A DNA stretch of 64,000 nucleotides from a virus (taxonomy: Duplodnaviria > Caudoviricetes). Shown one piece after another: positions 22,657-39,709 of this stretch. The first letter of the stretch is position 1. Every line of letters begins with the position of its first letter. Made by a program: the position numbers and the translations under genes. The DNA lies in IMG/VR virus record IMGVR_UViG_3300035208_008180; one strand, 5' to 3'. Below the pieces are notes generated by a model. That model did no database searches. It saw only the letters and a program-made list of their open reading frames with translations, and was not told the DNA's origin.

Positions 22657-22807
22657 TGGAGCCAATGGGAGATCGAACCCATCATAACCGTAGGTCTACC
22701 TAAAGGAATGTGTCTTGCGACCATCCATCCAGACAAAATGGGTTAGCAATGTCCATTTTAGCGTCTGGGCTTGGTTTTCTCTCGGCATATGCTTCCCTGG
22801 TGGCCCC
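22657..22807 (-). ncRNA. tmRNA-like / expanded Ala-acceptor RNA (151 nt)
   Basis: GGGGCCA/TGGCTCC-A with G3.U70; T-arm ATGGG-TTCGATCT-CCCAT; no D-stem. Confidence 0.65.
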
Positions 22808-22890
22808 GTAGCGGCAACTCCCTTTCGGTGGATGCTCAATGCGATCTCTCGCAAACTCCGACAACACACGAATGCATGTCCGTCCGCCGC

Positions 22891-22919
22891 ATTATATCAT
22901 GAAAAAAAATTTATGTCAA
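22891..22919 (-). promoter_or_regulatory. consensus sigma70 promoter
   Basis: TTGACA-17nt-TATAAT with extended -10 TG. Confidence 0.85.
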
Positions 22920-22951
22920 AGCCATATATAACTTAAAAGGAGAAATTAAAC

Positions 22952-23362
22952 ATGGCACTTCCATTCCCGGTAATTGTATTTCAAACCAACCTTACACCGC
23001 CAACAAGTGAGGCTTTTGGACCAAACTCAACTCTACAGGGCACAAACAGCCCAGACAATATTGTAGACACCCCCAATCAAACATATCTTGATGATCTAAA
23101 AGAACAACGCAAGAATGATCGATCCACCTCTATGCCTTCAGTAGGGAAATATGCTAATTACGCTTGGGGACCGCCTGAGCCAAATAAAGTAAAAAATGGA
23201 GAAATTTTTGTTGTTGCTGGACAAGCTGCTATAAATACAATGAAATTATATTGTAACAAAGCTAAGATTTTAGAAAACCTTCCAGCTTATACTGGAGAAG
23301 GTGCAGCCCCAGGCTTTGATATTTTAACAGTTTTGTATTTCGGTCCCGATCCCGGCATTTAA
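22952..23362 (+). CDS. hypothetical protein
   Basis: AGGAG SD. Confidence 0.75.
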   Translation: MALPFPVIVFQTNLTPPTSEAFGPNSTLQGTNSPDNIVDTPNQTYLDDLKEQRKNDRSTSMPSVGKYANYAWGPPEPNKVKNGEIFVVAGQAAINTMKLYCNKAKILENLPAYTGEGAAPGFDILTVLYFGPDPGI

Positions 23363-24232
23363 AGACATTTTATAATACAATTTCAAATCCAGTTCCAATG
23401 CAACATTGTTTGGAACTGGATTTTCTTTTACCCAGTCAAATAAAACTGCATCGCCTGTCGGAGATATTTGCACAAAAGTATTTGTTTTTCTTGCCCAAGT
23501 ACCACTATTGATGTACCAACCACCAATAAAACCAGGACGATGAGTGTGTCCTGTTACTAAAACATCATAATTATGCGATGCCCAATCTTGGCGATACAAA
23601 CAATGTATTCTTTTAATTCTATTGGGGTTTTGTGCGGGGGTTGTGGAAAATCCAAACCCTCCTAATCGTAGGATGGCTTTTATTTCATTGACAATTCTAA
23701 ACCACCTGCCGAGAAAACCATCAATAATTTTTTCTAAATTATCTTCTACAAAATCACCACTTTTGAATAAAGGTGATTTGTTTCTGTCTTTTGCCATTCC
23801 AGCCAAAATACTAACAATTCTTCCTCGGTATGGTGTGTCACTGGAATTAGATGCATCAACTTCATGCCCATGCATAAACTTAAAGCACTTCTCCCCAAAA
23901 TTTTGCTCAAATGACCCACACATCTTATTGAAAAAAGGATGGGTTAAAAACTCGGTTCCAATAAAATGCTGTAAATCATCGTCATGATTGCCGACAACAT
24001 AAATAGCATCCATTCGTGCCAGTCGATCTAATAATGGCAAATGTTGCATAATAATTTTGCTTGGATTCATTTGCCAAAATTCAAATAAATCACCCAAAAT
24101 TATTAATTTACCATACTGTCTCTCAACATAATCGAGAAACGAATTCAATTGTTGTTCTCTGCCACCAATGGCAAAATTATCTCTCGGTCCCCCGTCTCCT
24201 ATGTGCAAATCACTAATAACAAATGTGTTCAT
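23324..24232 (-). CDS. metallophosphoesterase (LpxH-like)
   Basis: SDLH, LGDLFE, GNHD, HGH, GHTH, NSGTW. Confidence 0.88.
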   Translation of the reverse strand: MNTFVISDLHIGDGGPRDNFAIGGREQQLNSFLDYVERQYGKLIILGDLFEFWQMNPSKIIMQHLPLLDRLARMDAIYVVGNHDDDLQHFIGTEFLTHPFFNKMCGSFEQNFGEKCFKFMHGHEVDASNSSDTPYRGRIVSILAGMAKDRNKSPLFKSGDFVEDNLEKIIDGFLGRWFRIVNEIKAILRLGGFGFSTTPAQNPNRIKRIHCLYRQDWASHNYDVLVTGHTHRPGFIGGWYINSGTWARKTNTFVQISPTGDAVLFDWVKENPVPNNVALELDLKLYYKMSLNAGIGTEIQNC

Positions 24233-24262
24233 ATATTATATGAGTAACAATTAATGCATTAG

Positions 24263-24335
24263 TGGACCACCGGGAAGTTGAATCCCGTCTTCCGCCTTGC
24301 GGGGACAGCGTGCAAACCCGTTACACTTGTGGCCC
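24263..24335 (-). tRNA. tRNA-Ala(CGC)
   Basis: G3.U70; CTGTC-CCCGCAA-GGCGG. Confidence 0.8.
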
Positions 24336-24386
24336 ATGAGCCGCCGAAGTGTGCATGCCTTGCGGCAGAGGCCCGACGACTAACAG

Positions 24387-24457
24387 AGCGGGTAGCGAGA
24401 ATTGAACTCGCCGCTCAACGTTGGGAACGTTGGGTATTACCACTATACGATACCCGC
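24387..24457 (-). tRNA. tRNA-Gly(CCC)
   Basis: CAACG-TTCCCAA-CGTTG. Confidence 0.9.
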
Positions 24458-24928
24458 TTATTATTCCTATATACTAAAAGATACCTTATAAATTTCGGAG
24501 AATCACTATGTAAAAAGGAGCCACTGATGAACATCATTAGAAAACTATTTGGCAAAAAAGAATTGCAACCAAAATGTGAACATGAATGGCATGAATACAA
24601 ACACGATACATCTGGTGAGTTTAAGTGGCGACAATGCTTAAAATGTAAACAACGACAAGTTCTACTCAACGAATGGCTTAATTATGGGAGCTAAACCACC
24701 ATTAATGTCTCTTTTTGATAACTTTTATTTGTAATGTTTTCCTATCCAACGTATTAACAATACGATTGCAGGCCATAGCATTAGACATTCGGCAATTCCA
24801 ATGCCAACAACAGGAATTGTTCTATCTGGATCAGTGCTCAATAGATAAACAGTCCTGGTCAATCCGCAGAGCAAAGCTACCACGAAAGTTACAATAAACA
24901 TTGATTTTAGACTGAATTGCATAATTAG

Positions 24929-25001
24929 TGCGGCTAGCGAGATTCGAACTCGCACTCTCTACCTTGGCAAGGTAGCACTTTAGCCATTAAGTTACAGCCG
25001 C
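24929..25001 (-). tRNA. tRNA-Gly(GCC)
   Basis: CTACC-TTGCCAA-GGTAG. Confidence 0.9.
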
Positions 25002-25250
25002 ATTTAAATCTTCCTGAACAATTTCTACAAACAACTTCCAAGCATCACGAAGTGATATATAACCGGCAGCATTATTGCAATAGTTATATTTGTTAAAAGA
25101 TACAACAACATACTTGGATGGATAATTGCCACCACTATAAATAACCGACAAATTTCCCTCTCTGTCACGATATTTGGCAATAAGCAAATTGTGATCTAAA
25201 TCAGAGAATCTAGTATCGGCATTGAAATTCATTTTTGATTTCTCCAAAAG

Positions 25251-25321
25251 AGTGCCTACGGAGATTCGCACTCCGACACCGAACTCGGCAAGTTCGTATG
25301 CAACTATTACATCATAGGCAC
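25251..25321 (-). tRNA. tRNA-Gly(GCC)
   Basis: CGAAC-TTGCCGA-GTTCG; T-loop TGCGAAT. Confidence 0.85.
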
Positions 25322-25325
25322 AAAG

Positions 25326-25396
25326 TACCCCGTAGAAGAATCGAACTTCTCCTTTCAGTTTCGAAGACTGACGTGCGTCCATCACACTCACAGGGC
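25326..25396 (-). tRNA. tRNA-Arg(TCG)
   Basis: TCAGT-CTTCGAA-ACTGA. Confidence 0.9.
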
Positions 25397-25401
25397 ATAA
25401 G

Positions 25402-25473
25402 TGAGTCGGTGCGGAATCGAACCGCTCTTCAAGCTTCGGAGGCTTGCGTGCTATCCATCACACCCACCTACTC
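25402..25473 (-). tRNA. tRNA-Arg(CCG), apparent 8/4 fold
   Basis: CAAGC-CTCCGAA-GCTTG; GAGTAGGT/ACCGACTC; T-stem GCGG/CCGC. Confidence 0.8.
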
Positions 25474-25726
25474 GAATATCATTTAGTATTTTTTCACCAG
25501 CAAACCGCATATCCTCAACTGTAATAAGCGGATTGCCATGACTGTCTTTCTGTGTTATATGGCCAACGGCCAATTTGTATAGCTCGTCATCAATCATATG
25601 CATATAATCCATGCCAAGCTGCATCGCTTCACAATCAATTACCCATTCATATTGTTGAATAGGCAGTTGAACAGGTGGTGGTATTACCTTCTTTTTAAAC
25701 CATCCCATAATTTACCTTTCAAGTAG

Positions 25727-25798
25727 TATCCCCTGTAGGTAACGCTCCTACTCCTCCAGCTTCGTAGGCTGACGTGCGATCTTTCACACTCAGGGGAC
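25727..25798 (-). tRNA. tRNA-Arg(ACG)
   Basis: TCAGC-CTACGAA-GCTGG; T-loop AGCGTTA. Confidence 0.85.
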
Positions 25799-26677
25799 GA
25801 TTTTTGACCTCACCTTTGTCCAATATCCTCGTGGCGGCTTTGATATCCCATACCACTTACACCATTTATCCACTGCCTTGTCGCTGACTCCCAACTCCTT
25901 CGCTATTACTGTTGTAGGTCTCTGCCACACCCATAACAGCAATTCGTCTTTCGTGGGTCGTTTGACTTTGCGGATACTTTCTATTGGATAATATTTGTTT
26001 TTCTCTCTTTTCGGCTTCACGCTGTCAGCTTTTATTATCTTGAATTTTGCGGCACGAAATGACCTGATACCAGTAGGCTCAACCTGTATTACTCCAATAG
26101 TGTATTTCTCTGTGCTTTCGAACTGCTCAACAAATTCTTTTAATTCCTTTATTATATTTTTGGGAGCAGAACGTAATTCGTCCCAAGAGACCCTAAAAAT
26201 TTTCCACCCTTCCGCCGAAGCTTTAGCATCTCTTTTTTTATCTTTCTCTACAGTGTTCTTATCAGTATGATGCCGCCCATCAATCTCGATATCTATTTTA
26301 AATTCTACAATCGCAAAATCAAATACATATTGATAGAATTGCAATTTTTCAAGAACAATGAATTGAGAAAAATAACTACTTTCATTTAAGGCGTTTAAAA
26401 AAAACTGTTCTGGATACGTTCTATTGTCTTTGTTTAAATTTACCGACAGCCAGCCGGGATGCTTACCCTCTGCATGTACCCTTTTCATTGATGCTGATAT
26501 TTTTGAGGAAGCCGATTTCATTGCAGCAGTTGATGACCTACTTTTCAAACAGCCCTGCTTTACTGCCCTCCGAATTAGTCCATTGTACGTCACGCCGAAA
26601 ACCTTTGCCACATCTGGCCAACTATTCCCCGCATCGTAACATCGCTGCATTAATTCCCAATTATACTGTTTTTTCAT
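25790..26677 (-). CDS. DUF559/Vsr-like free-standing endonuclease with HTH
   Basis: TYPE, DFAI, IEIDGRHH, DKKRD..GWKIFRVSW. Confidence 0.85.
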   Translation of the reverse strand: MKKQYNWELMQRCYDAGNSWPDVAKVFGVTYNGLIRRAVKQGCLKSRSSTAAMKSASSKISASMKRVHAEGKHPGWLSVNLNKDNRTYPEQFFLNALNESSYFSQFIVLEKLQFYQYVFDFAIVEFKIDIEIDGRHHTDKNTVEKDKKRDAKASAEGWKIFRVSWDELRSAPKNIIKELKEFVEQFESTEKYTIGVIQVEPTGIRSFRAAKFKIIKADSVKPKREKNKYYPIESIRKVKRPTKDELLLWVWQRPTTVIAKELGVSDKAVDKWCKWYGISKPPRGYWTKVRSKIVP

Positions 26678-26733
26678 TCGAACCTCCTATATTATATAGT
26701 AAGGTTCGAATGAATTTTTATTTCAAAAGTTAG

Positions 26734-26806
26734 TGGAGGTTGCGGGCTCTGCCCCCGCCACCTTTTGGCTGCCAGCCAAACGCTCTCCTGAATGAGCTAA
26801 ACCCCC
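26734..26806 (-). tRNA. tRNA-Ala(GGC)
   Basis: TTTGG-CTGGCAG-CCAAA; T-loop GGCAGAG. Confidence 0.85.
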
Positions 26807-26871
26807 ATATGGAGCCGGGTGGGCGTGGTTACTCGCCACGGAGTTTCCCATTCCCGGCACATATAAAACAG

Positions 26872-26944
26872 AGCGGCGGAAGAGGCTCGAACTCTCGACC
26901 ATCAGATTGGAAATCTGAGACTCTGCCAACTGAGTTACCGCCGC
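26872..26944 (-). tRNA. tRNA-Gly(TCC)
   Basis: TCAGA-TTTCCAA-TCTGA. Confidence 0.92.
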
Positions 26945-26949
26945 AAAAG

Positions 26950-27200
26950 TACCATTACCAGGGCTTGAACCTGTACTTCTGGCTCCAATTGCAAATGCTT
27001 ATGCCAGCGTGCTACCACGGCTACGATTCCATGTTATTACTAAGTTTGATGATTCTATTATATATTATTTTTTGGACCTGTCCAGCCTTTCTGCTGGCTC
27101 ACGTTTTTTATAGCTTTTGCAATTGTTATCCAAAAACTTTCAAATAGCATTTTCTCCCACTTCACAACACTACTTTCCTTTGCCTTTACACCATAATGGC
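26950..27200 (-). ncRNA. tRNA-like RNA with ~165-nt D-loop insert and 19-nt anticodon loop
   Basis: GCCATTA/TAATGGT-A; D-stem GTGT/GCAC; CTGGC/GCCAG; T-arm CAGG-TTCAAGC-CCTG. Confidence 0.65.
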
Positions 27201-27202
27201 AG

Positions 27203-27275
27203 TACCCCGTGCGGGATTCGAACCCGCAGTTTTCAGCTTGAAGGGCTGACGACATAACCCTTAGTCCAACGGGGC
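27203..27275 (-). tRNA. tRNA-Glu(TTC)
   Basis: TCAGC-CCTTCAA-GCTGA. Confidence 0.88.
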
Positions 27276-27950
27276 ATGTATCTCGGTTCCTAAAGTGCTT
27301 TCTTGACCAATGTGCCTAATCAATGGATATTGGGAAATAAATATTTTAGTTTGTGTCTCAAACAAATATTTACCTAATAACAAGTCATATAAAATAGGAG
27401 TCTCTTTAAATCCGTTTAATATAGTGCTGACTATTTCTTTTATCGGTAGAGTTTTAGGATAATACCGTGCTTGAGTGCCCGCTAAACAAAGCAATGCTTT
27501 ATTGTCTATGATTGTTTGCACTGGCTCTCTCACCAAACCAAAATCTATCTGTAATGGCCCCCGCACCATTGCTCCTGATTGGAAACCACCGAGAGGACAC
27601 CAATGCTCACCAATAGATAAAACATACTTTGAATAAACTCTCTCCACATAAGCAACAAATCTCTTTAAGTCTCTTCTCCAATCATCCCTCAACTCCACAT
27701 CATCCTCTAATATCAATGTATTCTTGCCTTCTGCCAGCATTAAACATCGACAATAGTTTCGCAAAGCACGCTCTTTGGCGTCACCATCATTGGTTGTTTT
27801 AAGCACTTTGGTGAAATTATACTCAGGAAGATAATCTTCCAAAGAATCCATAACCAAAAAAATTGGCAAATCATCTGCCTTTATGGCTCTTAAAGTTTGA
27901 TGAATATATGCCCTATTTGGACAAGTGCTTATAATAATTTGTTCTAACAT
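27261..27950 (-). CDS. putative glycosyltransferase (GT-A, GT25-like)
   Basis: TLILEDDV, IRHIGQEST. Confidence 0.6.
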   Translation of the reverse strand: MLEQIIISTCPNRAYIHQTLRAIKADDLPIFLVMDSLEDYLPEYNFTKVLKTTNDGDAKERALRNYCRCLMLAEGKNTLILEDDVELRDDWRRDLKRFVAYVERVYSKYVLSIGEHWCPLGGFQSGAMVRGPLQIDFGLVREPVQTIIDNKALLCLAGTQARYYPKTLPIKEIVSTILNGFKETPILYDLLLGKYLFETQTKIFISQYPLIRHIGQESTLGTEIHAPLD

Positions 27951-28223
27951 GTGAATTTTCTGTGCTTTTCAATCTCTCGATCAAAACTTCGCAACAATCT
28001 TTTGTTTTCTTCATCAAAACGATGTCGATCTTTTTCTTCTTCTGGCATCGCCTCCCATGCTGCTAAACCAGGGTCAATAAAATTGGCAACATCATCCGAT
28101 TTTAACTTTCTAAATTGCTCACGATCCTCTTCAGGAGCATTCAATACCACTTGCCCCGGTCCTGGTTTTCGATTCCAACAAGTGGGAACCCAAAAATATC
28201 TTGTAAGATATTCTCCAAGTTTT

Positions 28224-28652
28224 TCAAGCGACCGCATACTCATGCTTTTTCTCCCTAACAGGTTTCCCCATTACAGCCACCAATCCTTGCAAACTGGATT
28301 CTGCTTTAATTCTCAGCATTTCCAGTCGTCGCTTTCGTTCCATATACCCAAAAGACTCCAGCGGCAAACTGCCCGATTGCTTTTGCTGTTGCTTCAAATA
28401 AATAATTTTTGTTTCTTCTCTGCTCCGATCATTGTTGCACTTGGAACAAGCTAAAACCCGGCGTGGCTCACCAGAAAACATAAGCCTTCGAGGATGCAAT
28501 CTACTATACAGATGATCGATGGTGGCAGCATCACTGGGCATCGGTCCACCACGGGGCAATTCTACCAATCGCATAAGTTTGCCACACCAAAAACAATGAG
28601 GATTAGCAGCAAACATTTTTCGTCGCTGTCTGCGTAATCGTTCTCCACTCAT
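28224..28652 (-). CDS. HNH endonuclease
   Basis: CFWCG, ATIDHLYSR, VLACSKCNNDR. Confidence 0.85.
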   Translation of the reverse strand: MSGERLRRQRRKMFAANPHCFWCGKLMRLVELPRGGPMPSDAATIDHLYSRLHPRRLMFSGEPRRVLACSKCNNDRSREETKIIYLKQQQKQSGSLPLESFGYMERKRRLEMLRIKAESSLQGLVAVMGKPVREKKHEYAVA

Positions 28653-29873: not shown

Positions 29874-29960
29874 TCGAGGCGGCAAGAATCGAACTTGCTT
29901 CCTCCGTCCCCTGGGAGTAAATCCCCGATAGTCGGCGTGCAACCATTGCACCTCACCCCG
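29874..29960 (-). tRNA. Pro-type tRNA body with 22-nt anticodon loop (15-nt insert)
   Basis: CGGGGTG/CGCCTCG-A; loop contains GGGA-TTTAC-TCCC hairpin. Confidence 0.7.
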
Positions 29961-31477: not shown

Positions 31478-31982
31478 AAAAGCCAACGAATTGAATTCAT
31501 GCCTAGTTGCCGTAGCATTCGTTGGCCAAGGTCTTGTGACAATATTCCGTAATCATCCAAGACAGACAACATTCCTTTTATTTCATGCGTCTTGCCACTT
31601 CGGCAATCGTGTTGTGTGTTTTTATTTTTTCTAACTCACGCATCTTTCTGCTGTTGGAAAATTCATCCCATTCGTCTCCCAACTCCTCAGCCGAACTTAC
31701 TTCCACGCCAGCAATACACTGGAATCGCTGTGTTTCTTCAATCCATTGTTGCTTGTTTGGATTCATGATTCAATATTTTTCTAATGCCATGCTTTTTGTT
31801 GAGACCTGCAATTTCCTCTCTTGTCGCTGTATCTGCAAAATGATCGTAAACACAGCGTCCTACCCAGGTGCATCCCTTACGGGTGCAAACCTGAAACATG
31901 GTGCCGCCACCAATGTCATCAAAACCCACTTTGTGACCTAAAATTTTGCAAAGTGCAGTCATTTAACTTCCTTTGTTTTAAG

Positions 31983-32071
31983 CTCCGAAGGGAGGATTCG
32001 AACCTCCATACCGATTGAACGGATTACACGATGTTAACAGCATCGCCGCCTGCCAATTGGCGTACCTCGGA
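31983..32071 (-). tRNA. tRNA-Asn(GTT) with long variable arm
   Basis: CGATG-CTGTTAA-CATCG; 21-nt variable region. Confidence 0.85.
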
Positions 32072-33109: not shown

Positions 33110-33165
33110 AGACCCGGCCATTATGTTCGTCACCAAAATATGGGAGCGGAACACCGGGTACTTAG

Positions 33166-33238
33166 CGGTGCCAACGAGTGTCGATCTCGTACTTCCTGCT
33201 CGACGGGCAGGTGTGCAGGGCCGCTACACTATGACACC
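33166..33238 (-). tRNA. tRNA-Asp(GTC)
   Basis: CCTGC-CCGTCGA-GCAGG. Confidence 0.82.
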
Positions 33239-33579: not shown

Positions 33580-33723
33580 GATTTATACCTTTGGTAGCGG
33601 TATTACAGATGGGTGCTCGTCGTCTATCTCATCCATAATGTCTGGAAATATAATTCGTAACAACAAATTCGCAAACAATATTGTCACCAAAGCCCATGCC
33701 ATGATTTTCCTTCAACTGCCATT

Positions 33724-34065
33724 CTAAATCAACTTCATGCTTTTTTCAATAGCAAGTTCTCGTGATGATCCAATTAATTCGTAAAGCTGATCTGGCAAGG
33801 GGTCGCCCGATTCGGCTTTATTATGGCAACCCTCACAAAGACTAATGCCATTTTCCGCCACATAGCCACCATTCGGCATCGCATCCCTGTCAGTGATGTG
33901 ATGTGCATCCAACTTGGCTCTTGGAATGTCTAAACCTTCAAATTCGCCAGTTTGACTACATTTCCCAGGTTGGCCACAGACCCTACATGCATATCGATCT
34001 CTTTTGAACACAGCTTTACGAAAAACTGATCTTACCGTTTGTTTTTTATGCATGATTTTCTCCAA
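33724..34065 (-). CDS. HNH endonuclease
   Basis: VFKRDRYACRVCG, DAHHI, NGISLCEGCH. Confidence 0.85.
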   Translation of the reverse strand: MEKIMHKKQTVRSVFRKAVFKRDRYACRVCGQPGKCSQTGEFEGLDIPRAKLDAHHITDRDAMPNGGYVAENGISLCEGCHNKAESGDPLPDQLYELIGSSRELAIEKSMKLI

Positions 34066-34068
34066 AAG

Positions 34069-34142
34069 CGAGCGTGACGGGGGTCGAACCCGCTACCCCT
34101 TGATCGACAGTCAAGGATGCAAAACCGTTACACCTCACGCCC
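34069..34142 (-). tRNA. tRNA-Asp(GTC)
   Basis: CTTGA-CTGTCGA-TCAAG. Confidence 0.88.
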
Positions 34143-34145
34143 AAA

Positions 34146-34369
34146 ATTTGTCATCTCATAAGCGGAATTCTGTTTACAACCATCATTTATCTCACATTGC
34201 TGTGGTCTTTCGACTGCCTCTACCCGACTTCTCAGGGTCACTCACGCCCTCAGTCTGTTTGAGTTGCATCCTCGGTAGTTCGGACGAACAAAGTTCTCCT
34301 ACCTTAAAAGTGATGATGTTCCGACTTTCCTCTACGGATTGCTCCGCAGCGATGGTTCGGATGACAAAT
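34146..34369 (-). ncRNA. rnpB: minimal RNase P RNA (catalytic domain, S-domain nearly absent)
   Basis: GAGGAAAGTCGGAAC (CR-I) and AACAGAATTCCGCTTA (CR-V); P1-P7 and P15-P17 pair; L15 GGT; AGATAAA CR-IV. Confidence 0.88.
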
Positions 34370-34394
34370 GTATATTAGAGAAAATACGATTTAG

Positions 34395-34467
34395 AGCCAC
34401 CAGAGGGAATCGAACCCACGACAGGCTGATTACAAATCAGCTACTCTACCAACTGAGTTACGGTGGC
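34395..34467 (-). tRNA. tRNA-Thr(TGT)
   Basis: GCTGA-TTTGTAA-TCAGC. Confidence 0.92.
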
Positions 34468-34471
34468 AAAG

Positions 34472-34542
34472 AGCGTCCAGGGAGAATCGAACTCCCAGCT
34501 TGACCTTGGAAGGGTCAGGTATTACCACTATACGATGGACGC
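34472..34542 (-). tRNA. tRNA-Gly(TCC)
   Basis: TGACC-CTTCCAA-GGTCA. Confidence 0.9.
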
Positions 34543-34547
34543 AAAAG

Positions 34548-34618
34548 TGGACCGTAGGAGAGTCGAACTCCTGTCTTCGCCGTGCAAGGGCGACGTAATC
34601 CCGTTATACCAACGGCCC
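34548..34618 (-). tRNA. tRNA-Ala(TGC)
   Basis: G3.U70; TCGCC-CTTGCAC-GGCGA. Confidence 0.9.
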
Positions 34619-34972
34619 ATTTCTTTTCCATCCAGAATAATCTCTGGAAGGCTCGCAAAAATGACCCTCTTCATCATAAGGCCATTCTTTATAATAAATC
34701 CAATCCTTTAAGCACTCCTCCCTGATGAATTTGTAGGCAAAAGGTCGAACACGCACCAATTGATCGTAATGTGCTTTGCTCTCAGACCCTGTTCTAATAT
34801 CCTTGATTAAAACAAGTTGCTTCTCATGCTCATGTCCAATTACTTTCCAATATGGACCGTGCAACAAAAAAGCATCCATATCCTGAAACATAAACATTTC
34901 ACCAGTTATCAAATCCTTTGCCTTGACGTGGTATCCTCCCCACCCTGGCTCGTCGCATCGCTTATCACTCAT
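34604..34972 (-). CDS. hypothetical protein
   Basis: GAGGAG SD. Confidence 0.65.
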   Translation of the reverse strand: MSDKRCDEPGWGGYHVKAKDLITGEMFMFQDMDAFLLHGPYWKVIGHEHEKQLVLIKDIRTGSESKAHYDQLVRVRPFAYKFIREECLKDWIYYKEWPYDEEGHFCEPSRDYSGWKRNGPLV

Positions 34973-35296
34973 TTTTTCTCCTCAGACGCCCATACTAAAC
35001 AACTTTCTTCCAGCCATTCTCGGCTAAAATATTTTCTATTTTTGCAAACTTTCCTTCTTCGTCACATTCAACGTCGAAAGACACTTCAGATAATTTACCA
35101 TCACACGGAGAATAAATAAGCAAATCAGCATTACGAAGACACCAATCCTCCCCAGCCACATCAGGATGCATGCCAGGAAAAACAATGCCATCGCCAGTGT
35201 GCGGAATTATTTCTAATTCCAACTCTTTACTGTAAACTGCATTCTGTGATCCCCAAATAACAACATTGCAATCAATTCTCATAATTTTCTCCTCAG

Positions 35297-35370
35297 TGGT
35301 CGCAGCAGGGATCGAACCTGCGAGCCTCTCGCACGTCAAGCGAGCGTTCTCCCAACTGAACTATGCGACC
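35297..35370 (-). tRNA. tRNA-Val(GAC)
   Basis: CTCGC-TTGACGT-GCGAG. Confidence 0.9.
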
Positions 35371-35374
35371 AAAG

Positions 35375-35448
35375 TCAAGGCGGCGAGAATCGAACTCGCA
35401 ATTTCAAGTCCCCCAGACTTGCGGGATAAACCATTTCCCTACGCCCTG
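35375..35448 (-). tRNA. tRNA-Pro(GGG)
   Basis: CAAGT-CTGGGGG-ACTTG. Confidence 0.88.
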
Positions 35449-36021
35449 TTATTTTCTAACTGCCCAATGGTAATGTATTTTACGATGGCAGTTAGCACAC
35501 AGCACTTTACACTTTGCTATTTCTTTTTTTAAATTGGGCAATCCCCAATCACAAACAGCCCTTGTAATATTGATTTCTTTTTCCCCATCGTGATGAAAAT
35601 CCAAACAACACTCTTCTTTTTCTCCGCACTCTTCACAACAATGCGTTCTTCTATATTCGCTAACAAACGCTCTGTTTCTCTGCCTTTTTACATTACTTGT
35701 TGTGGGTGGACAATCATTGCGATGAATTTTTCTATGACAATTTGCACAAACCACTTCACATTTAGCAATCTCTTTTTTCAATCTTTCTAAACCAAAGCCC
35801 TGAATAGCCGTTGCCACAGAAGTGTCTTTATCTCCAAGATGATGAAGTTGCAAACAAGCAACACACGACTCTCCGCAAGTACAAGCATGTGCTTCTTTGT
35901 ATTGCTCCACATACAGTTTGTTTGCTTGTTTTCTGTTTTTATTTCGATCTCTAAAAATTGCTTTATTTTTCTGAAAATGTTTTCTTTGAAACTCTTTTTG
36001 ATCTTCTTTATTTTTATACAT
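35449..36021 (-). CDS. tandem-duplicated HNH endonuclease
   Basis: Two copies of CGE..CL.(L/F)HH..KKEIAKC.V.CANCHRKIH. Confidence 0.85.
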   Translation of the reverse strand: MYKNKEDQKEFQRKHFQKNKAIFRDRNKNRKQANKLYVEQYKEAHACTCGESCVACLQLHHLGDKDTSVATAIQGFGLERLKKEIAKCEVVCANCHRKIHRNDCPPTTSNVKRQRNRAFVSEYRRTHCCEECGEKEECCLDFHHDGEKEINITRAVCDWGLPNLKKEIAKCKVLCANCHRKIHYHWAVRK

Positions 36022-36094
36022 TTGAACCTCACTATATTATATAGTAAGATTCAACTCATTTTAGGTGACTAAATTTATATTTTGTAGAAAAAAG

Positions 36095-36168
36095 TCGGGG
36101 TGGTCGGCTTCGCTCCGACGTTCTTGTGCTCCCGAAGCACATGGGATACTGGACTTCCCCACACCCCG
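36095..36168 (-). tRNA. tRNA-Pro(CGG)
   Basis: TGTGC-TTCGGGA-GCACA; T-loop AGCGAAG. Confidence 0.85.
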
Positions 36169-36171
36169 AAG

Positions 36172-36245
36172 TCAGGGTAGTCGGCTTCGCTCCGACGATC
36201 TCTTGCTCCCAAAGCAAGCGTGATACTAGGCTTCACTATACCCTG
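36172..36245 (-). tRNA. tRNA-Pro(TGG)
   Basis: CTTGC-TTTGGGA-GCAAG; T-loop AGCGAAG. Confidence 0.85.
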
Positions 36246-36252
36246 CAAACAG

Positions 36253-36323
36253 TCGGTCAGACAAGAATCGAACTTGTTACCCGAGTTCCCAAAACTCGTA
36301 TGTCGCCATTACACCACAGACCG
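36253..36323 (-). tRNA. tRNA-Pro(TGG)
   Basis: CGAGT-TTTGGGA-ACTCG. Confidence 0.85.
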
Positions 36324-36326
36324 AAA

Positions 36327-36554
36327 CTAAATCAACGCTTCCATAAAATAATCTTTTTCTTCTGCCACTTTCACAGCGGCAATTTTTATCACATAGCAAT
36401 GCCAAGTCCAAGTGGCCCCACCCCGATCCAGATCAACAGCATAACCAGTTTTCGTGACTTTGATTATTACACCATTACCTGCTCGTATAGGGCACAACAC
36501 TTTAACTCGATCACCGACTGCCAGCAATTTCTTCATATCAATTAACTTTGCCAA
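36327..36554 (-). CDS. SH3/KOW-like small protein ending DYFMEALI
   Basis: VGDRVKV..G. Confidence 0.7.
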   Translation of the reverse strand: MAKLIDMKKLLAVGDRVKVLCPIRAGNGVIIKVTKTGYAVDLDRGGATWTWHCYVIKIAAVKVAEEKDYFMEALI

Positions 36555-36811
36555 AGAGGCATCCAGCCAACAATTTCATCATTTTTTATTTTAACAAATC
36601 CATTCATATGATTCAAGGTTTCCCCATTATCCCAGAATCTGACTTCCATTCCTTCGGAATTTTTCATAAAATCAGCAGCATCTTTATCAATTGCATCATT
36701 TAAACCCTGGTCAATATCGATGCCATCTTTTTCCAAGTCGGCTTTGATAAATGCTGCCACATCTTCTATTTTTTGCTTTAGATGTTCTTTTCTCAACCAA
36801 TTATATTTCAT
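36542..36811 (-). CDS. hypothetical protein
   Basis: Coupled ORF. Confidence 0.65.
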   Translation of the reverse strand: MKYNWLRKEHLKQKIEDVAAFIKADLEKDGIDIDQGLNDAIDKDAADFMKNSEGMEVRFWDNGETLNHMNGFVKIKNDEIVGWMPLWQS

Positions 36812-37038
36812 ACAAACGCTTCCATAAAATAATCAATTTCTTTTTCGACCGAAACCAATTCCAACTCATTTTCCCTAAAGCCTAACGACCAGAATTTGTT
36901 ATGCGAATCTTCTATTCTCACGAAAACAAGTGGCAAAGCAACCCCTATAACAACGCCTTGCTGTCCCAGCCACACAAGATTGTTTGGAAATCTCGATGGA
37001 TATTTAACAACAACCCTGTCATCGATTTCAAATTTCAT
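36808..37038 (-). CDS. SH3/KOW-like small protein ending DYFMEAFV
   Basis: MKFEIDDRV..ENEL. Confidence 0.75.
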   Translation of the reverse strand: MKFEIDDRVVVKYPSRFPNNLVWLGQQGVVIGVALPLVFVRIEDSHNKFWSLGFRENELELVSVEKEIDYFMEAFV

Positions 37039-37274
37039 ATAAGTGCTTCCATAAAATAATCAATTTCTTCGGCAACCGATGCTAATTCATTTTCTGCAAA
37101 CTGTAAAGAACATGTTCCACTAAAACTTGTTAAATCTGGCAAGACTGTTACGAATTTTAATGAAACCAAATAATAAACTGTCGTTTTTGTGGGCAACCCT
37201 ACAACAACGCCTATAGTGGTTGTCCAAATACTATTTCCAATGACTTTAACTTTATCACCGATTTTGAATTTCAT
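37035..37274 (-). CDS. SH3/KOW-like small protein ending DYFMEALI
   Basis: MKFKIGDKVKV..ENEL. Confidence 0.75.
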   Translation of the reverse strand: MKFKIGDKVKVIGNSIWTTTIGVVVGLPTKTTVYYLVSLKFVTVLPDLTSFSGTCSLQFAENELASVAEEIDYFMEALI

Positions 37275-37480
37275 ATCAGTGCTTCCATAAAATAATCTTT
37301 TTTATCTTCAGCTAAAACCAACTCACTTTCTGCAAGTGTTAGTAATGTTTTGGAGCCATCTATTTGCACCAAAAACACAAGCACAGGATTGGTTATAAAG
37401 TCGAGCACGACACCTGTCTCATTTTTCCACTCTGACGACGACGTAACGACTTTAACTCGATCACCTATTTTGAATTTCAT
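37271..37480 (-). CDS. SH3/KOW-like small protein ending DYFMEALI
   Basis: MKFKIGDRVKV..ESEL. Confidence 0.75.
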   Translation of the reverse strand: MKFKIGDRVKVVTSSSEWKNETGVVLDFITNPVLVFLVQIDGSKTLLTLAESELVLAEDKKDYFMEALI

Positions 37481-37502
37481 AAATTTATTATAGCATAAGA
37501 CG

Positions 37503-37592
37503 AAAAAAAACGAGAGGTGTCCTCCCAATTAGACGACCAGCGGCTTTCGCAACCAAGTGGGACTCGAACCCACATTTCCTCTCTGCTTTCTT
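37503..37592 (-). ncRNA. circularly permuted tRNA-like (YrlA-like) RNA
   Basis: Order: stem, T-arm GTGGG-TTCGAGT-CCCAC, acceptor closed by GAAA, D-arm GTCT-AATTGGG-AGGAC, stem. Confidence 0.75.
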
Positions 37593-37597
37593 AAAAG

Positions 37598-37671
37598 TAC
37601 CCCGTATGGGATTCGAACCCATGATTTTCACCTTGAGAGGGTGACGACATAAACCGTTAGTCCAACGGGGC
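37598..37671 (-). tRNA. tRNA-Glu(CTC)
   Basis: TCACC-CTCTCAA-GGTGA. Confidence 0.9.
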
Positions 37672-37676
37672 ATGAG

Positions 37677-37749
37677 TAGCCGCAGGGTGAATCGAACACC
37701 CGTTTCCACCGTGTAAGGATGGCACTAAATACCACTCAGTTATGCGGCC
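37677..37749 (-). tRNA. tRNA-Val(TAC)
   Basis: CCATC-CTTACAC-GGTGG. Confidence 0.88.
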
Positions 37750-37762
37750 ATAAATAATATAG

Positions 37763-37834
37763 TAGCCCGTGACGGTTTCGATCCGTCTTCCGCTGCCTGA
37801 AAAACAGCTATCCTAGCCAGTAGACGAACGGGCC
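37763..37834 (-). tRNA. tRNA-Glu(TTC)
   Basis: GCTGT-TTTTCAG-GCAGC. Confidence 0.85.
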
Positions 37835-37844
37835 ATAACTAAAG

Positions 37845-37917
37845 TACCCTGTACGGGATTCGAACCCGTAATTTTCAGCTTGAAGGGCTGACGACATAAC
37901 CGTTAGTCCAACAGGGC
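37845..37917 (-). tRNA. tRNA-Glu(TTC)
   Basis: TCAGC-CCTTCAA-GCTGA; near-duplicate of 27203-27275. Confidence 0.88.
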
Positions 37918-37921
37918 AGAA

Positions 37922-38061
37922 ATGCATGGGATGATTCTTTCACTCTTCTAAGGAACGAAGCCGTAGCCGAATCTAATCAGGTGGCCATCTCCCTTTTGAT
38001 TCTACACCTACTTTATTTCGGAGCAAGCCCCCTAAAAAAGTGAAAGAATCACCCCATGCAT
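37922..38061 (-). ncRNA. 140-nt long-stem structured element
   Basis: About 33-bp closing stem ATGCATGGGGTGATTCTTTCACT../..AGTGAAAGAATCATCCCATGCAT with G.U pairs. Confidence 0.55.
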
Positions 38062-38489
38062 GTTACATGCATTTGGAAATTTAACCGAATTGTCAAAGAT
38101 CGGAGGGTTTACGACTACTTGCTTACCAAGCGTATTCGTCGTCCTACACCCACAGGTTTTACTTGAGGACTCTATCGAGCCACCAAGCGAAGTCTTTCAA
38201 CTCTGGATCGTTGTAAAGTTCGTGTTTGAAAAGAAGTTTTCGTTTGATGTCTTCTCTCCACATTTTAACCACTACATCCATCCAGTGTTTTCCGACCACG
38301 TATCCATTTATTTTGTTATCAAAAAGGTTGATTTTCATATTGCCTATACCTCGGGTTTCCCAGAGGTAAGCTTCCATCGCCGCCTCATCCGAAAAATCAA
38401 AATGTTCTTCGGAGAAGTAGCGGTAGATCGGCTTGAACTTCAACCAATTTTCACTGATGCCAAACGCATTTTATTTCCCCTTTGTCAAT

Positions 38490-38528
38490 AAAAAAACCCG
38501 GACTCAAGTTTCCTTGATCCGGGTTTTG
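38490..38528 (-). terminator. intrinsic terminator
   Basis: AAAACCCGGA..TCCGGGTTTT hairpin with T-tract. Confidence 0.7.
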
Positions 38529-38837
38529 ATTTTCTTCCGGCTCAAGGTTTTGCCCCTGAGCCTTGTCTAGCTCAGGGTCAAATGGCGGTATTATCTTCGA
38601 CTTCTGGACGTACCGCCACTGTGGGTATTGTTGTACCCTCAGGTGCCGGTCGTCTTGTTGTTCCGAAGAAATTACTCATCATTTGACCCTTAAAATAGCG
38701 AAACTTGGATGGGTTGGTTGTCTTAGGCGGTTGGGTAAAACCCAAACCCTCGACCAATGCTCCAAATCTCACTACCTCCTTTATATAGTACGTTCGAGAA
38801 AAAATCAAGCCCAAATTCCGAAAAATTTTTTTCTAAG

Positions 38838-38965
38838 TCCGACGACCCGGAATCGAACCGGCTATTACCCGAATGTTGCAACACCCAAAGTAACTTGAGC
38901 ATCAAGCCATTTCGCACCCAAAATCTACCCATATGTCTCGAATTTGGATACGTGCCTGTCATCGG
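38838..38965 (-). ncRNA. 8/4 tRNA-like RNA with expanded D-loop and long V-arm
   Basis: CCGATGAC/GTCGTCGG-A; CCGG-TTCGATT-CCGG; GCAC/GTGC. Confidence 0.6.
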
Positions 38966-38970
38966 TCATC

Positions 38971-38998
38971 ATTATACTTCAGATTTCGCCGTTGTAAA
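38971..38998 (-). promoter_or_regulatory. phage promoter TTTACAA-N9-CTGAAGTATAAT
   Basis: Repeated motif. Confidence 0.75.
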
Positions 38999-39007
38999 CC
39001 AAAAAAA

Positions 39008-39251
39008 ATGGCAGGTTGGGCTTGAGTACCAACTACGAACTTTGAACACCAATTTTTCGTTATTTCCCCAACGTATCAAGTGCCGTGTCTTCGTTGGGTC
39101 GGTGCCAGGGTCTAATCGCTTTGTCCTTTCCCTTGCGGGGAAGGCACGAAGTAGTCACCTACACTCACCGGGCACTACCGGATAGCTCGTGTCACCCAGT
39201 AGGCTTTCGCCTACCCTCATTGCGAAGCGTGTCCATCCACGCCGCTGCCAT
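39008..39251 (-). ncRNA. 244-nt RNA with tRNA-like acceptor, D and T arms and a large central domain
   Basis: ATGGCAG/CTGCCAT; GCGT-GGATGGAC-ACGC; GTTGG-TACTCAAGC-CCAAC; GNRA hairpins; U-tract. Confidence 0.65.
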
Positions 39252-39276
39252 ACACCGAGGTGTATCTGACAATGCC

Positions 39277-39304
39277 ATTATACTTCAGTGCCTGGATTTG
39301 TAAA
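39277..39304 (-). promoter_or_regulatory. phage promoter TTTACAA-N9-CTGAAGTATAAT
   Basis: Repeated motif. Confidence 0.75.
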
Positions 39305-39535
39305 GTCCGAATCCAGCCATTTGCAACATTCGTCAAAACCCTCAATGTGGAGGGATTGCTCTTCCTCTGTCAGTTCAACCTCTGGCGGTATTTTGACGGG
39401 CATTGGTCCAAAAAACGTATCTCGGAAAATGCCGGAAGAATTGATTTCATAGACAGCCCAAGCACCACCATAACCATCAGAGGTTATCTTGAGAATCCAT
39501 TCTTTTAATTTCATGATTTAATGTCCTAAAAGAAG

Positions 39536-39709
39536 CGTGGGGGGTAGGCATCGAACCTACGTCTTTGGTTCCGCAAACCACTGTCTTTACGCATCAATAT
39601 CCTTGCATCTTCTTTCCGACCAGCTTTCGTCGGATGTCCAAAACAACAATATCAATGCGTCCTGCCGTAGTATGTACACTTAGGCGGCAGCCAACTAAAC
39701 GACTCCCAC
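39536..39709 (-). tRNA. tRNA-Arg(GCG) with ~100-nt structured D-loop insert
   Basis: GTGGGAG/CCCCCAC-G; TGGT-TTGCGGA-ACCA; GTAGG-TTCGATG-CCTAC. Confidence 0.75.

Follow-up and report, generated by a model that had tools for sequence, protein, structure and literature searches.

We lean towards regarding the seven tRNA-like loci in the tRNA island of a jumbo phage as heterogeneous tRNA-derived structured RNAs that constitute neither one family nor one pathway, with the mini RNase P RNA and the RtcB cassette of the same phage as general equipment for tRNA supply and repair, not as their dedicated partners. At least two of the loci, RNA5 and RNA6, are supported by sequence comparison as functional structured RNAs carried within tRNA-like ends. 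The earlier note on this DNA had joined all seven to RNase P and RtcB in one system; of that interpretation, the functional structured RNAs stood for RNA5 and RNA6, whereas the single system did not.

The window, the whole stretch of 64,000 nucleotides that was analysed, is a tRNA island of a jumbo phage of about 340 kb, mistakenly binned with a bacterium of 64% GC. The phage contig comprises 340,072 bp with a GC content of 40.5%, as opposed to 64% for its bin. It bears 65 tRNA genes and one tmRNA, as well as a gene for a CCA-adding enzyme and a Y-RNA-like array adjoining the gene of a divergent TROVE-like protein. Our comparison set was a single diverged relative phage, of which about 20 kb was covered (L012 and L021), with RNA1, RNA3 and RNA4 lying outside it.

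Seven tRNA-like loci on one strand

The seven loci are all encoded on the minus strand, and each combines an acceptor-like stem with a T or T-like hairpin.

22657-22807, minus strand: RNA1, 151 nt, Ala/tmRNA-type acceptor, no D stem, two internal hairpins
26950-27200, minus strand: RNA2, 251 nt, occupying the interval between tRNA-Glu and tRNA-Gly; 7-bp acceptor, weak T arm
29874-29960, minus strand: RNA3, 87 nt, Pro-type acceptor (C1:G72, A73, G3.U70)
37503-37592, minus strand: RNA4, tRNA mimic in circularly permuted form, closing tRNA array A at its 3' end
38838-38965, minus strand: RNA5, 128 nt, five-way junction without an anticodon loop; acceptor, T arm and three hairpins
39000-39251, minus strand: RNA6, 244-nt multi-domain RNA (39008-39251) with a U8 tail
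39536-39709, minus strand: RNA7, 174 nt, multi-arm, filling the gap between two ORFs

ARAGORN called none of the seven at default settings, and none matched Rfam at gathering scores; the relaxed intron mode of ARAGORN called RNA3, RNA5 and RNA7. On the 340-kb contig, the minus strand has 12 orphan consensus T arms, which lie outside the called tRNAs, and the plus strand has none; this bias indicates that the tRNA-like loci are more than chance occurrences. The stems, the T arms (of consensus type in six of the seven) and the strand bias bear out the earlier description of these loci as tRNA-like ends with extra domains or altered topology. None of the seven RNAs can decode because the 7-nt anticodon loop is missing in all of them. 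The idea of a single family and pathway, however, did not hold up. Sequence and covariance-model comparison among the seven found no similarity, so "family" is a descriptive label only, and their contexts differ: some are stand-alone transcription units, others lie within mRNAs, and one is a terminator of an array.

Conservation of RNA5 and RNA6 in the relative phage

Both RNA5 and RNA6 qualify as conserved non-coding RNAs, and each has a predicted promoter of its own that the relative also keeps.

38971-38998, minus strand: RNA5 promoter, TTTACA-16-TATAAT (11/12)
39277-39304, minus strand: RNA6 promoter, TTTACA-16-TATAAT (11/12)

The RNA5 counterpart (L012:7580-7708) is 90% identical, compared with just 62-74% for the flanking proteins. 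Its 39 pairs showed one compensatory change, located in the acceptor stem, and four one-sided changes, with none broken (folding z = -2.8). RNA6 is closed by a terminal stem of 7 bp and contains a D-like hairpin whose loop includes GG, several GNRA-capped hairpins, a T-like hairpin with a non-consensus 9-nt loop, and a long-range helix. Its counterpart (L012:6485-6741) is 76% identical, and its 63 pairs included eight compensatory changes, again with none broken. Pairing was thus preserved at every substitution in the stems of both RNAs. For RNA6, neither a match in the Rfam search nor a paralogue was found. The expectation that the inserts would be conserved and covary in relatives held for RNA5 and RNA6 but not for RNA2 and RNA7, which the relative lacks at the corresponding positions.

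The 5' end of RNA5, predicted about 6 nt past its own -10 box, coincides with the predicted transcription start in both phages, as does that of RNA6 in the relative. These RNAs would therefore have no 5' leader for RNase P.

RNA2, RNA3 and RNA7 as possibly interrupted tRNA genes

RNA2 and RNA7 are specific to this phage lineage. In the relative (L021), tRNA-Glu is followed by tRNA-Gly only 4 nt on, and RNA7 is missing at the matching place. The RNA2 acceptor (GCCATTA/TAATGGT) begins 1 nt after tRNA-Glu, its 4-bp T stem carries the loop TTCAAGC, and its folding z is -1.6. The structural reading of RNA2 is ambiguous; a second 5' strand, ATCATCA with one mismatch, occurs at 27053, and the insert harbors a promoter-like sequence.

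27057-27084, minus strand: promoter-like TGGACA-16-TATAAT (11/12), inside the RNA2 insert

This internal promoter suggests a shorter RNA2 transcript of about 104 nt or, alternatively, a promoter-carrying spacer. In RNA7, the acceptor pairs except for one A.C mismatch, the T arm is perfect and a further arm spans about 72 nt; 0 of 200 shuffled sequences folded as well (z = -4.8). Both RNA2 and RNA7 may be non-functional insertions. RNA3 reads as a Pro-type tRNA body whose anticodon arm is too long: the predicted cloverleaf has normal acceptor, D and T arms and an anticodon arm of 32 nt without a 7-nt loop. It lies between two ORFs, overlapping the stop codon of a radical-SAM gene (folding z = -1.0; Rfam tRNA-Sec, 24 bits, E 0.7).

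These three loci could be tRNA genes that an intron or a mobile insertion has split and that are either spliced to working tRNAs or decaying as pseudogenes. The same window does contain a tRNA gene with a true intron, and HNH and DUF559 homing-type nucleases are dotted through the tRNA array.

13315-13647: true group I intron in tRNA-Met

Moreover, RNA2 is a promoter-containing insertion with respect to the relative phage, and the relaxed intron mode called RNA3 and RNA7, along with RNA5. However, no insert matched a group I intron up to an E value of 10, and the inserts, at 13-175 nt, are mostly too short for such introns. No EndA-type endonuclease is present, and, as read from the sequence, no 5-bp anticodon stem with a 7-nt loop re-forms when the inserts are taken out. 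RNA7 also folds far better than its shuffled versions. We consider interrupted genes an unlikely explanation and return to heterogeneous tRNA-derived structured RNAs.

RNA1 and RNA4 and the question of cis-acting elements

RNA1 lies in the 5' UTR of an 88-aa ORF, downstream of a predicted promoter.

22891-22919, minus strand: promoter TTGACA-17-TATAAT with TG (12/12); predicted leader of about 77 nt, then RNA1 and downstream ORFs

Its acceptor is formed by 7 bp (GGGGCCA/TGGCTCC, with G3:U70 and A73), and a long helix abuts the T arm, which has the stem ATGGG/CCCAT and an 8-nt loop (folding z = -2.0). RNA1 scored 12.4 bits (E 0.24) with the Rfam tmRNA model, and its match to the 3' end of tmRNA was only weak; the tmRNA of the phage is a standard one (345 nt, tag ANDYVALAA) encoded elsewhere. 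Judged by its predicted fold, RNA4 is permuted in the same way as YrlA-type Y RNAs, and it overlaps the terminator of the array: a closing stem is followed by the T arm, an 8-bp hairpin capped by GAAA, the D arm, the other strand of the closing stem and U8. The order of T arm, GNRA-capped hairpin and D arm also occurs in two members of the Y-RNA-like array. The minimum-free-energy fold of RNA4 is the tRNA-like form (z = -2.4), and the YrlA model aligned over its full length and in order, albeit below threshold (20.3 bits, E 0.44).

Some loci might instead act in cis, RNA4 as a terminator with a tRNA remnant, RNA1 as a processing or regulatory element in the 5' UTR of the ORFs that follow it, and RNA3 and RNA7 as tRNA-like "punctuation" at which RNase P and RNase Z cleave polycistronic mRNA. 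The terminator scan detected an alternative local hairpin within RNA4 (37511-37527) that, together with U8, makes a plain canonical terminator. RNA1 is placed between a 12/12 promoter and an ATG located 3 nt past the discriminator, without a visible Shine-Dalgarno sequence, and RNA3 and RNA7 exactly fill gaps between ORFs. Yet RNA5 and RNA6 stand alone, each behind a predicted promoter of its own, and the best fold of RNA4 is tRNA-like and follows the whole YrlA model. An ordinary tRNA would also do as punctuation, leaving the extra domains superfluous. A cis-acting role is improbable in our estimation, and we continue to favor tRNA-derived structured RNAs.

Mini RNase P, rewired tRNA elbows and RtcB

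The other components that the earlier note had singled out are indeed present: five normal-length tRNAs with rewired elbows, an RNase P RNA without an S-domain, and RtcB (Pfam, 299 bits).

25250-25321, minus strand: tRNA-Gly(gcc), T loop UGCGAAU, D loop without GG
33165-33238, minus strand: tRNA-Asp(gtc), T loop AUCGACA
34143-34368, minus strand: mini RNase P RNA of 226 nt that retains the catalytic domain, with the S-domain reduced to one short hairpin of about 42 nt
36094-36245, minus strand: tRNA-Pro(cgg) and tRNA-Pro(tgg), T loop AGCGAAG in both, the second without D-loop GG
37762-37834, minus strand: tRNA-Glu(ttc), T loop AUCGAAA
61168-63822, minus strand: RNA-repair cassette with RtcB (62416-63822), an MpsC-domain protein (61890-62249) and a calcineurin-like phosphoesterase (61168-61893)

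Exactly five normal-length tRNAs (starting at 25250, 33165, 36094, 36171 and 37762) lack the TTCRA T loop, and in two of these the D loop is also without GG. The mini RNase P RNA scored 67 bits (E 1e-18) against a gathering score of 100; a search of the phage contig for an RnpA gene found none. The relative has a counterpart (L021:322-514), and at least six other phage contigs (L005-L011) carry mini RNase P genes.

The integrated system would comprise a dedicated, elbow-blind RNase P maturing scaffolds that the host cannot, RtcB ligating or circularizing them, and inserts serving as functional cargo. All the parts reside on one phage, and mini RNase P accompanies an enrichment of elbow-rewired tRNAs in both the phage (10/65) and the relative (3/12). 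Elbow changes and the loss of the S-domain may be linked within this clade. The proposed co-occurrence of mini RNase P with insert-bearing tRNAs is found in part, as two other mini RNase P loci each have one insert-bearing tRNA-like RNA (L007:2339-2438 and L005:9305-9512). The tRNAs beside mini RNase P genes in other phages (five other loci, among at least six contigs) are canonical, however, with a consensus T loop in 67 of 68. RNA5 and the RNA6 of the relative, which would need no 5' cut, speak against dependence on the mini RNase P. The consensus T arm in six of the seven loci is what readers of the elbow or T arm recognize, so these are not elbow-less substrates, and M1 RNA, a bacterial RNase P RNA of full size, is able to cut tRNA mimics, M. 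smegmatis YrlA for example (PMC4201824). Nor are RNA2 and RNA7 conserved. A partnership with RtcB likewise found no backing: its cassette is 23 kb away from the tRNA-like RNAs, and RtcB with a phosphoesterase alongside is the usual tRNA-repair module of jumbo phages (PMC7824862). A splicing endonuclease was looked for, and none is present. We regard the integrated system as very unlikely.

In the favored explanation, the coaxial stack of acceptor and T arm would, by analogy, serve as a handle for end protection and processing. General tRNA machinery would recognize it, including 3' trimming, the phage CCA-adding enzyme and T-loop modifiers, and RNase P would act wherever a 5' leader exists. 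The outcome would be stable small RNAs, as for T4 species 1 RNA, tmRNA and YrlA. The most likely class of function for the internal domains is to bind or titrate tRNA-recognizing proteins.

Comparison with known systems

Jumbo-phage tRNA modules contain tRNA arrays, RtcB/Rnl ligases, phosphoesterases and TROVE proteins (Iyer et al., 2021, PMC7824862). Our phage shares RtcB with a phosphoesterase, large tRNA arrays, tmRNA, a CCA-adding enzyme and a TROVE-like protein; that review contains no occurrence of RNase P and describes no group of expanded tRNA-like RNAs. When aligned with bacterial type A RNase P RNA (RF00010), the mini RNase P RNA matches the P1-P4, CR-I, CR-IV and CR-V core from end to end but has about 42 nt in place of the S-domain and is phage-encoded inside a tRNA array. 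The type T RNase P RNA of Pyrobaculum is a naturally S-domain-less form.

RNA1 shares with the tRNA-like domain of tmRNA (RF00023) the GGGGC.../...GCUCC ends, G3:U70, A73, the missing D stem and the long helix into the T arm. Unlike tmRNA, it has only 151 nt and no credible tag frame, and its 12 bits fall short of the gathering score, which is 47.

YrlA-type Y RNAs, which occur in bacteria and phages, contain a tRNA-like domain and have Ro60/Rsr partners, often linked to RtcB (Chen et al., 2014, PMC4201824). RNA4 shares with them (RF02553) the T arm, an acceptor-like hairpin and the D arm inside a stem formed by the ends (PMC4201824), and the phage, as in YrlA systems, has a Y-RNA-like array by a TROVE-like protein as well as RtcB. 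However, RNA4 lacks the GNCGAAN0-1G motif near the 5' end, scored 20 bits where the gathering score is 69, and lies more than 4 kb from the TROVE-like gene. The other six tRNA-like RNAs are not permuted.

The T4 stable RNAs C and D (rnaC and rnaD, or species 1 and species 2; 139 and 119 nt) are, like the RNAs here, non-decoding and encoded on the tRNA strand in a phage tRNA cluster. We know of no function for either. Close to its 3' end, T4 rnaC carries a canonical T arm (CCGGG-UUCGAAU-CCCGG), and it also has long extra hairpins, as seen here. It showed no homology by sequence or model: it was the best non-self match of the RNA5 model, at a non-significant 12.9 bits (E ~1). The RNAs described here differ in having a full 7-bp acceptor stem, and RNA5 and RNA6 have their own predicted promoters, whereas rnaC and rnaD are cut from the array transcript. 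T4 species 1 RNA, YrlA and tmRNA are the closest precedents.

The phage contig and its relatives

The window spans bases 1-64000 of contig C200, which is 340,072 bp long and has a GC content of 40.5%, as opposed to 64% for the rest of the assembly. ARAGORN identified 65 tRNAs and a 345-nt tmRNA with the tag ANDYVALAA, all on the minus strand. The deviating GC content together with the tRNA/tmRNA content indicates a jumbo phage that was placed in one bin with a bacterium unrelated to it. The presence of C200 in its 6.2-Mb bacterial bin (64% GC) is thus probably a binning error, and the bin should not be equated with the phage host. The full-length RNase P RNA (265 bits) and RnpA of the bin are located on other contigs; C200 also codes for a CCA-adding enzyme and RtcB.

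Neither megablast nor blastn found close relatives in INPHARED, and none were found in IMG/VR by single-protein patterns or by RNA5/RNA6 sequence patterns. The RNA6 pattern gave only chance matches in JGI metagenomes and GTDB genomes. Protein searches retrieved phage copies from two further samples (L017 and L018), which are 100% identical to the window and therefore carry no comparative information; ERZ27247350 and SRR6484787 hold the identical phage. A 90% relative, also known from protein searches (ENA sample ERZ1426851), has a 96-nt gap after a radical-SAM gene, where RNA3 would fit. The one usable relative is GCA_043956535.1 (contigs L012 and L021), with a protein identity of 62-74%; its comparable DNA amounts to about 20 kb, in which RNA1, RNA3 and RNA4 had no counterpart, a result that speaks neither for nor against their conservation. 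Five more distant relatives (L013-L016 and L022, 56-59% identity) lack synteny and have no tRNAs at that place.

Seven tRNA-like loci without a common family

Sequence, folds and scans confirmed the seven loci of the earlier note as well as its mini RNase P RNA and its tRNAs with altered D/T loops; the normal-length tRNAs of this kind numbered exactly five, as had been counted.

Features in the window
22657-22807, minus strand, tRNA-like locus RNA1
26950-27200, minus strand, tRNA-like locus RNA2
29874-29960, minus strand, tRNA-like locus RNA3
37503-37592, minus strand, tRNA-like locus RNA4
38838-38965, minus strand, tRNA-like locus RNA5
39008-39251, minus strand, tRNA-like locus RNA6, with a U8 tail from 39000
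39536-39709, minus strand, tRNA-like locus RNA7
25250, minus strand, tRNA-Gly with rewired elbow
33165, minus strand, tRNA-Asp with rewired elbow
36094, minus strand, tRNA-Pro with rewired elbow
36171, minus strand, tRNA-Pro with rewired elbow
37762, minus strand, tRNA-Glu with rewired elbow
34143-34368, mini RNase P RNA
62416-63822, RtcB

None of the seven loci was called by ARAGORN at default settings or matched by Rfam at gathering scores. They do not conform to the canonical tRNA model RF00005, which asks for at least 29 bits and for a cloverleaf whose anticodon arm has a stem of 5 bp and a loop of 7 nt; a 7-nt anticodon loop is absent from their folds. Reading the minus strand with a simple acceptor-stem-plus-T-arm scanner recovered RNA1, RNA2, RNA3, RNA5 and RNA7 at the coordinates first proposed for them. 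Over the whole contig, orphan consensus T arms outside called tRNAs numbered 12 on the minus strand versus 0 on the plus strand, so that chance does not account for them. A further acceptor-plus-T-arm RNA of 123 nt (G000:C200:73872-73994, GCAACTA/TGGTTGC), missed by ARAGORN, lies in a second tRNA array outside the window.

We also considered whether the inserts are introns. With E cut-offs of 1-10, the group I core (RF00028) gave no match in RNA2, RNA6 or RNA7; its sole match, which serves as a positive control, lies at 13382-13551 (Rfam 63.9 bits), in a 258-nt group I intron that splits tRNA-Met(cat) at 13315-13647. The splicing endonuclease EndA (PF01974) had no match in the whole assembly, while archaeal control genomes matched, and no bulge-helix-bulge motif was seen by eye in RNA3, the one locus inspected for it.

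RNA5 and RNA6 are retained in the relative

RNA6 is an unclassified covarying RNA of 244 nt with several domains and no matching Rfam family. It is 76% identical in the relative, where its 63 predicted pairs show eight compensatory changes and no broken pair, and one hairpin is swapped for a different hairpin. The RNA is framed by a 7-bp terminal stem with a D-like hairpin and a T-like hairpin bearing a non-consensus 9-nt loop, and together with its promoter and U8 it stands as a unit by itself. Neither 255 kb of phage loci nor the whole assembly held another match to its covariance model. A role as a coding sequence or tmRNA-like tag was ruled out, as the relative loses the frame and the substitutions there compensate each other within stems. 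That RNA6 might supply an RNase P specificity domain in trans is kept as a remote idea only: a search with E values of up to 10 did not match it to RNase P, and its model misses the full-length rnpB of the bin.

RNA5 is 90% identical in the relative. Its 39 predicted pairs include one double-sided change (A-U to C-G, in the acceptor stem) and four one-sided changes to another standard pair, with none broken. The predicted fold is a five-way junction of the acceptor, a 40-nt arm replacing the D arm, a short hairpin whose loop measures 3-5 nt, a long "variable" arm and the T arm. The relative keeps the TTTACA-16-TATAAT promoter of each RNA as well as the U-run 3' of RNA6, and the flanking ORFs are non-homologous between the two phages. 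The 5' end of RNA5 lies about 6 nt past the -10 box, so that RNA5 is probably a leaderless primary transcript; for RNA6, a leader of about 19 nt precedes the window copy, whereas the copy in the relative has none.

The proposal of functional RNAs built on tRNA frames is thus partly supported, for at least RNA5 and RNA6. A single family was ruled out, as no two of the seven resemble each other. The expected conservation of inserts in relatives held for RNA5 and RNA6 but not for RNA2 and RNA7, which are absent at the matching positions.

The remaining loci

RNA1 has an acceptor of the Ala/tmRNA type (GGGGCCA/TGGCTCC followed by A, giving G3:U70 and A73). Its T stem comprises 5 bp with an 8-nt loop, a D stem is absent, and a helix runs into the T arm, as it does in the tRNA-like domain of tmRNA; the constrained fold lies within 1.5 kcal/mol of the free fold. 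The locus is placed between a 12/12 promoter on one side and, on the other, an ATG located 3 nt beyond the discriminator. The 88-aa ORF starting there has no visible Shine-Dalgarno sequence, and a nearly leaderless mRNA would result if RNA1 were processed at its 3' end. The leader of about 77 nt from promoter to RNA1 (22808-22890) appears structured and could close on itself through GCGGC...GCCGC.

RNA2 is absent from the relative, in which tRNA-Gly follows tRNA-Glu after 4 nt (L021). An 11/12 promoter lies in its insert, as does an alternative candidate for the 5' strand; RNA2 may be transcribed as 104 nt, be a read-through RNA of 251 nt, or be a spacer. RNA3 has a Pro-type tRNA body (C1:G72, A73) with a 32-nt anticodon arm. 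Its classification as Ala-type was weakened, since G3.U70 is common to phage tRNA-Pro(ggg) and thus does not imply alanine identity, and C1:G72 is of the Pro type.

RNA4 consists of a closing stem (GAGAGG/CCUCUC), a perfect T arm, an 8-bp hairpin capped by GAAA, UC, a D arm (GUCU / CUAAUUGGGA / GGAC) and U8. An alternative local hairpin would make it a plain terminator. RNA7 has the highest fold stability of the seven (z -4.8) but no comparative support; both RNA7 and its adjoining 78-aa ORF are absent at the matching place in the relative. By eye, RNA7 contains CCUAAG...UACGG, one base off the 11-nt GAAA-tetraloop receptor, and also a GAAA-containing loop; these sequence motifs hint at a compact tertiary fold.

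Altered elbows and other unusual tRNAs

Two of the five normal-length rewired tRNAs also lack the D-loop GG. In total, 10 of 65 tRNAs in this phage and 3 of 12 in the relative have rewired elbows, and both phages carry the mini RNase P. This frequent occurrence in both makes clade-specific, not general, co-evolution of elbow and enzyme possible. In tRNA-Gly(gcc) (25250-25321), UGC replaces T-psi-C and the D-loop GG is absent; it resembles the staphylococcal tRNA-Gly species serving cell-wall synthesis and not translation. Bacterial tRNAs with long variable arms are normally only those for Leu, Ser and Tyr. Long class II-like variable arms are found here in the 90-nt tRNA-Asn(gtt) (31982-32071), kept in the relative at L021:871-959 with 87% identity, and in the 93-nt tRNA-Ile(tat) (13209-13301).

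No support for a dedicated link of mini RNase P and RtcB to the tRNA-like RNAs

The 226-nt mini RNase P RNA aligns end to end with the type A model RF00010 (E 1e-18). It possesses the catalytic core of P1-P4, CR-I, CR-IV and CR-V, but the specificity domain (P7-P14, CR-II and CR-III) is missing, about 150 model positions being reduced to about 42 nt, and the score is 67 bits versus a gathering score of 100 bits. The relative keeps it at L021:322-514. A pattern search of IMG/VR for RNase P RNAs without the specificity domain found seven contigs of 39-225 kb; Rfam confirmed RNase P RNAs of 198-233 nt in six of the seven, five of these six in or beside tRNA arrays. The tRNAs on L005, L006, L008, L010 and L011 have a consensus T loop in 67 of 68 cases.

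Across these seven loci, the approximately 70 kb scanned held only two insert-bearing tRNA-like RNAs, one each in L007 and L005. They come from two unrelated phages with mini RNase P: a 100-nt tRNA-like RNA with a 44-nt near-perfect hairpin as its anticodon arm (L007:2339-2438, z -5.9), and a 208-nt tRNA whose anticodon region is expanded by an insert of about 135 nt (L005:9305-9512).

The earlier note had assigned the mini RNase P to these RNAs as poor substrates of the host enzyme. RNA5, and RNA6 in the relative, speak against a dedicated role, as they would have no 5' leader to remove. Pre-tmRNA and acceptor/T minihelices are cleaved by full-size bacterial RNase P RNA. The same holds for a tRNA mimic, the YrlA of M. 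smegmatis (PMC4201824). Six of the seven loci keep a T arm of the kind read by such enzymes.

RtcB (PF01139) is a full-length domain (299 bits, profile positions 1-423 of 426), lying 23 kb from the tRNA-like RNAs in a cassette (61168-63822) with an MpsC-domain protein (PF10057) and a calcineurin-like phosphoesterase. Such cassettes are a standard jumbo-phage answer to tRNA-cleaving defences (PMC7824862). A second phosphoesterase is encoded within the tRNA array (23324-24232). Given this distance, the repair context and the lack of an encoded splicing endonuclease, RtcB does not appear to be the dedicated partner that had been proposed. Taken together, the missing leaders, the canonical tRNAs of other mini-RNase-P phages, the reach of full-size RNase P and the distance of RtcB speak against a dedicated link. 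The integrated new system is not supported and, in the form proposed, is not worth pursuing; the individual RNAs merit attention, foremost RNA6.

Possible roles

The best explanation, which we consider somewhat probable, is a heterogeneous set of tRNA-derived non-coding RNAs, in which the acceptor/T stack would serve as a handle for processing and stability, with mini RNase P and RtcB as general equipment for tRNA supply and repair. A further scenario, which we regard as unlikely, is that this phage clade re-engineered tRNA elbow recognition as a whole. Here, the rewiring of about one in six tRNAs in their D and T loops would go together with an RNase P devoid of the elbow-reading domain. Non-decoding mimics, namely the 244-nt RNA6 as a new RNA class, the Ala-type RNA1 and RNA5, could act as decoys or regulators aimed at tRNA-shape-reading factors of the host or defence nucleases of this kind. 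If so, the tRNA supply of the phage would run apart from, and invisible to, host surveillance.

The set of RNAs in this phage is unusually rich. It holds two RNAs with comparative support, one of them of 244 nt, multi-domain and without an Rfam family, as well as a YrlA-style permuted mimic far from any Ro60 gene and an Ala-type RNA in a 5' UTR, and it adjoins a phage RNase P without its substrate-reading half and tRNAs with altered elbows. If expressed, these RNAs would be tractable candidate decoys or regulators in the phage-bacterial defence conflict over tRNAs; if not, they would illustrate rapid tRNA gene decay and reuse in giant phages. Most interest attaches to RNA6 as an unclassified covarying RNA and to the combination of features in one phage.

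Comparison with known tRNA-like RNAs

RNA1 shares G3:U70, A73 and the T arm with tmRNA (RF00023), but it scores 12.4 bits instead of at least 47 and lacks a tag frame with a resume codon and in-frame stop. Inspection by eye of the frame that begins in the GUC-GCA context showed it to run to the 3' end without a stop. ARAGORN -m found no tmRNA in the window.

RNA4 has the order of YrlA (RF02553), that is, T arm, acceptor-like stem-loop and D arm, with the 5' and 3' ends paired around them, a topology described by Chen et al. 2014 (PMC4201824). It aligned with the whole YrlA model (positions 1-114) at 20.3 bits, versus a gathering score of 69 bits. The Ro-binding motif GNCGAAN0-1G near the 5' end is absent from its 5' strand, and whereas YrlA genes share the strand of Ro60 and are no more than about 4 kb from it, the TROVE-like ORF of this contig is found at ~331.5-333 kb. 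An array of Y-RNA-like genes is located near 331-335 kb (G000:C200 ~331,465-334,800; L004:6466-9800), and in each member a tRNA-like body is flanked by the two strands of a conserved stem, GUCCCAYAC...ACUUGGAC. Two members have the order T, GNRA-capped hairpin and D, as in RNA4. The adjoining 534-aa protein is divergent and TROVE-like, with a weak match to solved TROVE-domain proteins (E 0.013).

In each case, some defining features are present and others are lacking, and all seven are accordingly left outside the known classes. The analogue of RNA1 is tmRNA, and that of RNA4 is YrlA. Tests with the RNA5 and RNA6 models gave no significant homology to T4 rnaC or rnaD: rnaC was the top non-self match of the RNA5 model (12.9 bits, E ~1, not significant), and the RNA6 model gave no match. 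What the window does share with rnaC and rnaD is small non-decoding RNAs in a phage tRNA cluster, with a 3' T arm. Small RNAs resembling tRNAs have been on record from the tRNA clusters of phages ever since T4 species 1 RNA, and are not known to have been explained. T4 species 1 RNA (rnaC), 139 nt long and encoded in the T4 tRNA cluster, combines a canonical T arm near the 3' end with long extra hairpins, and is the closest classical analogue.
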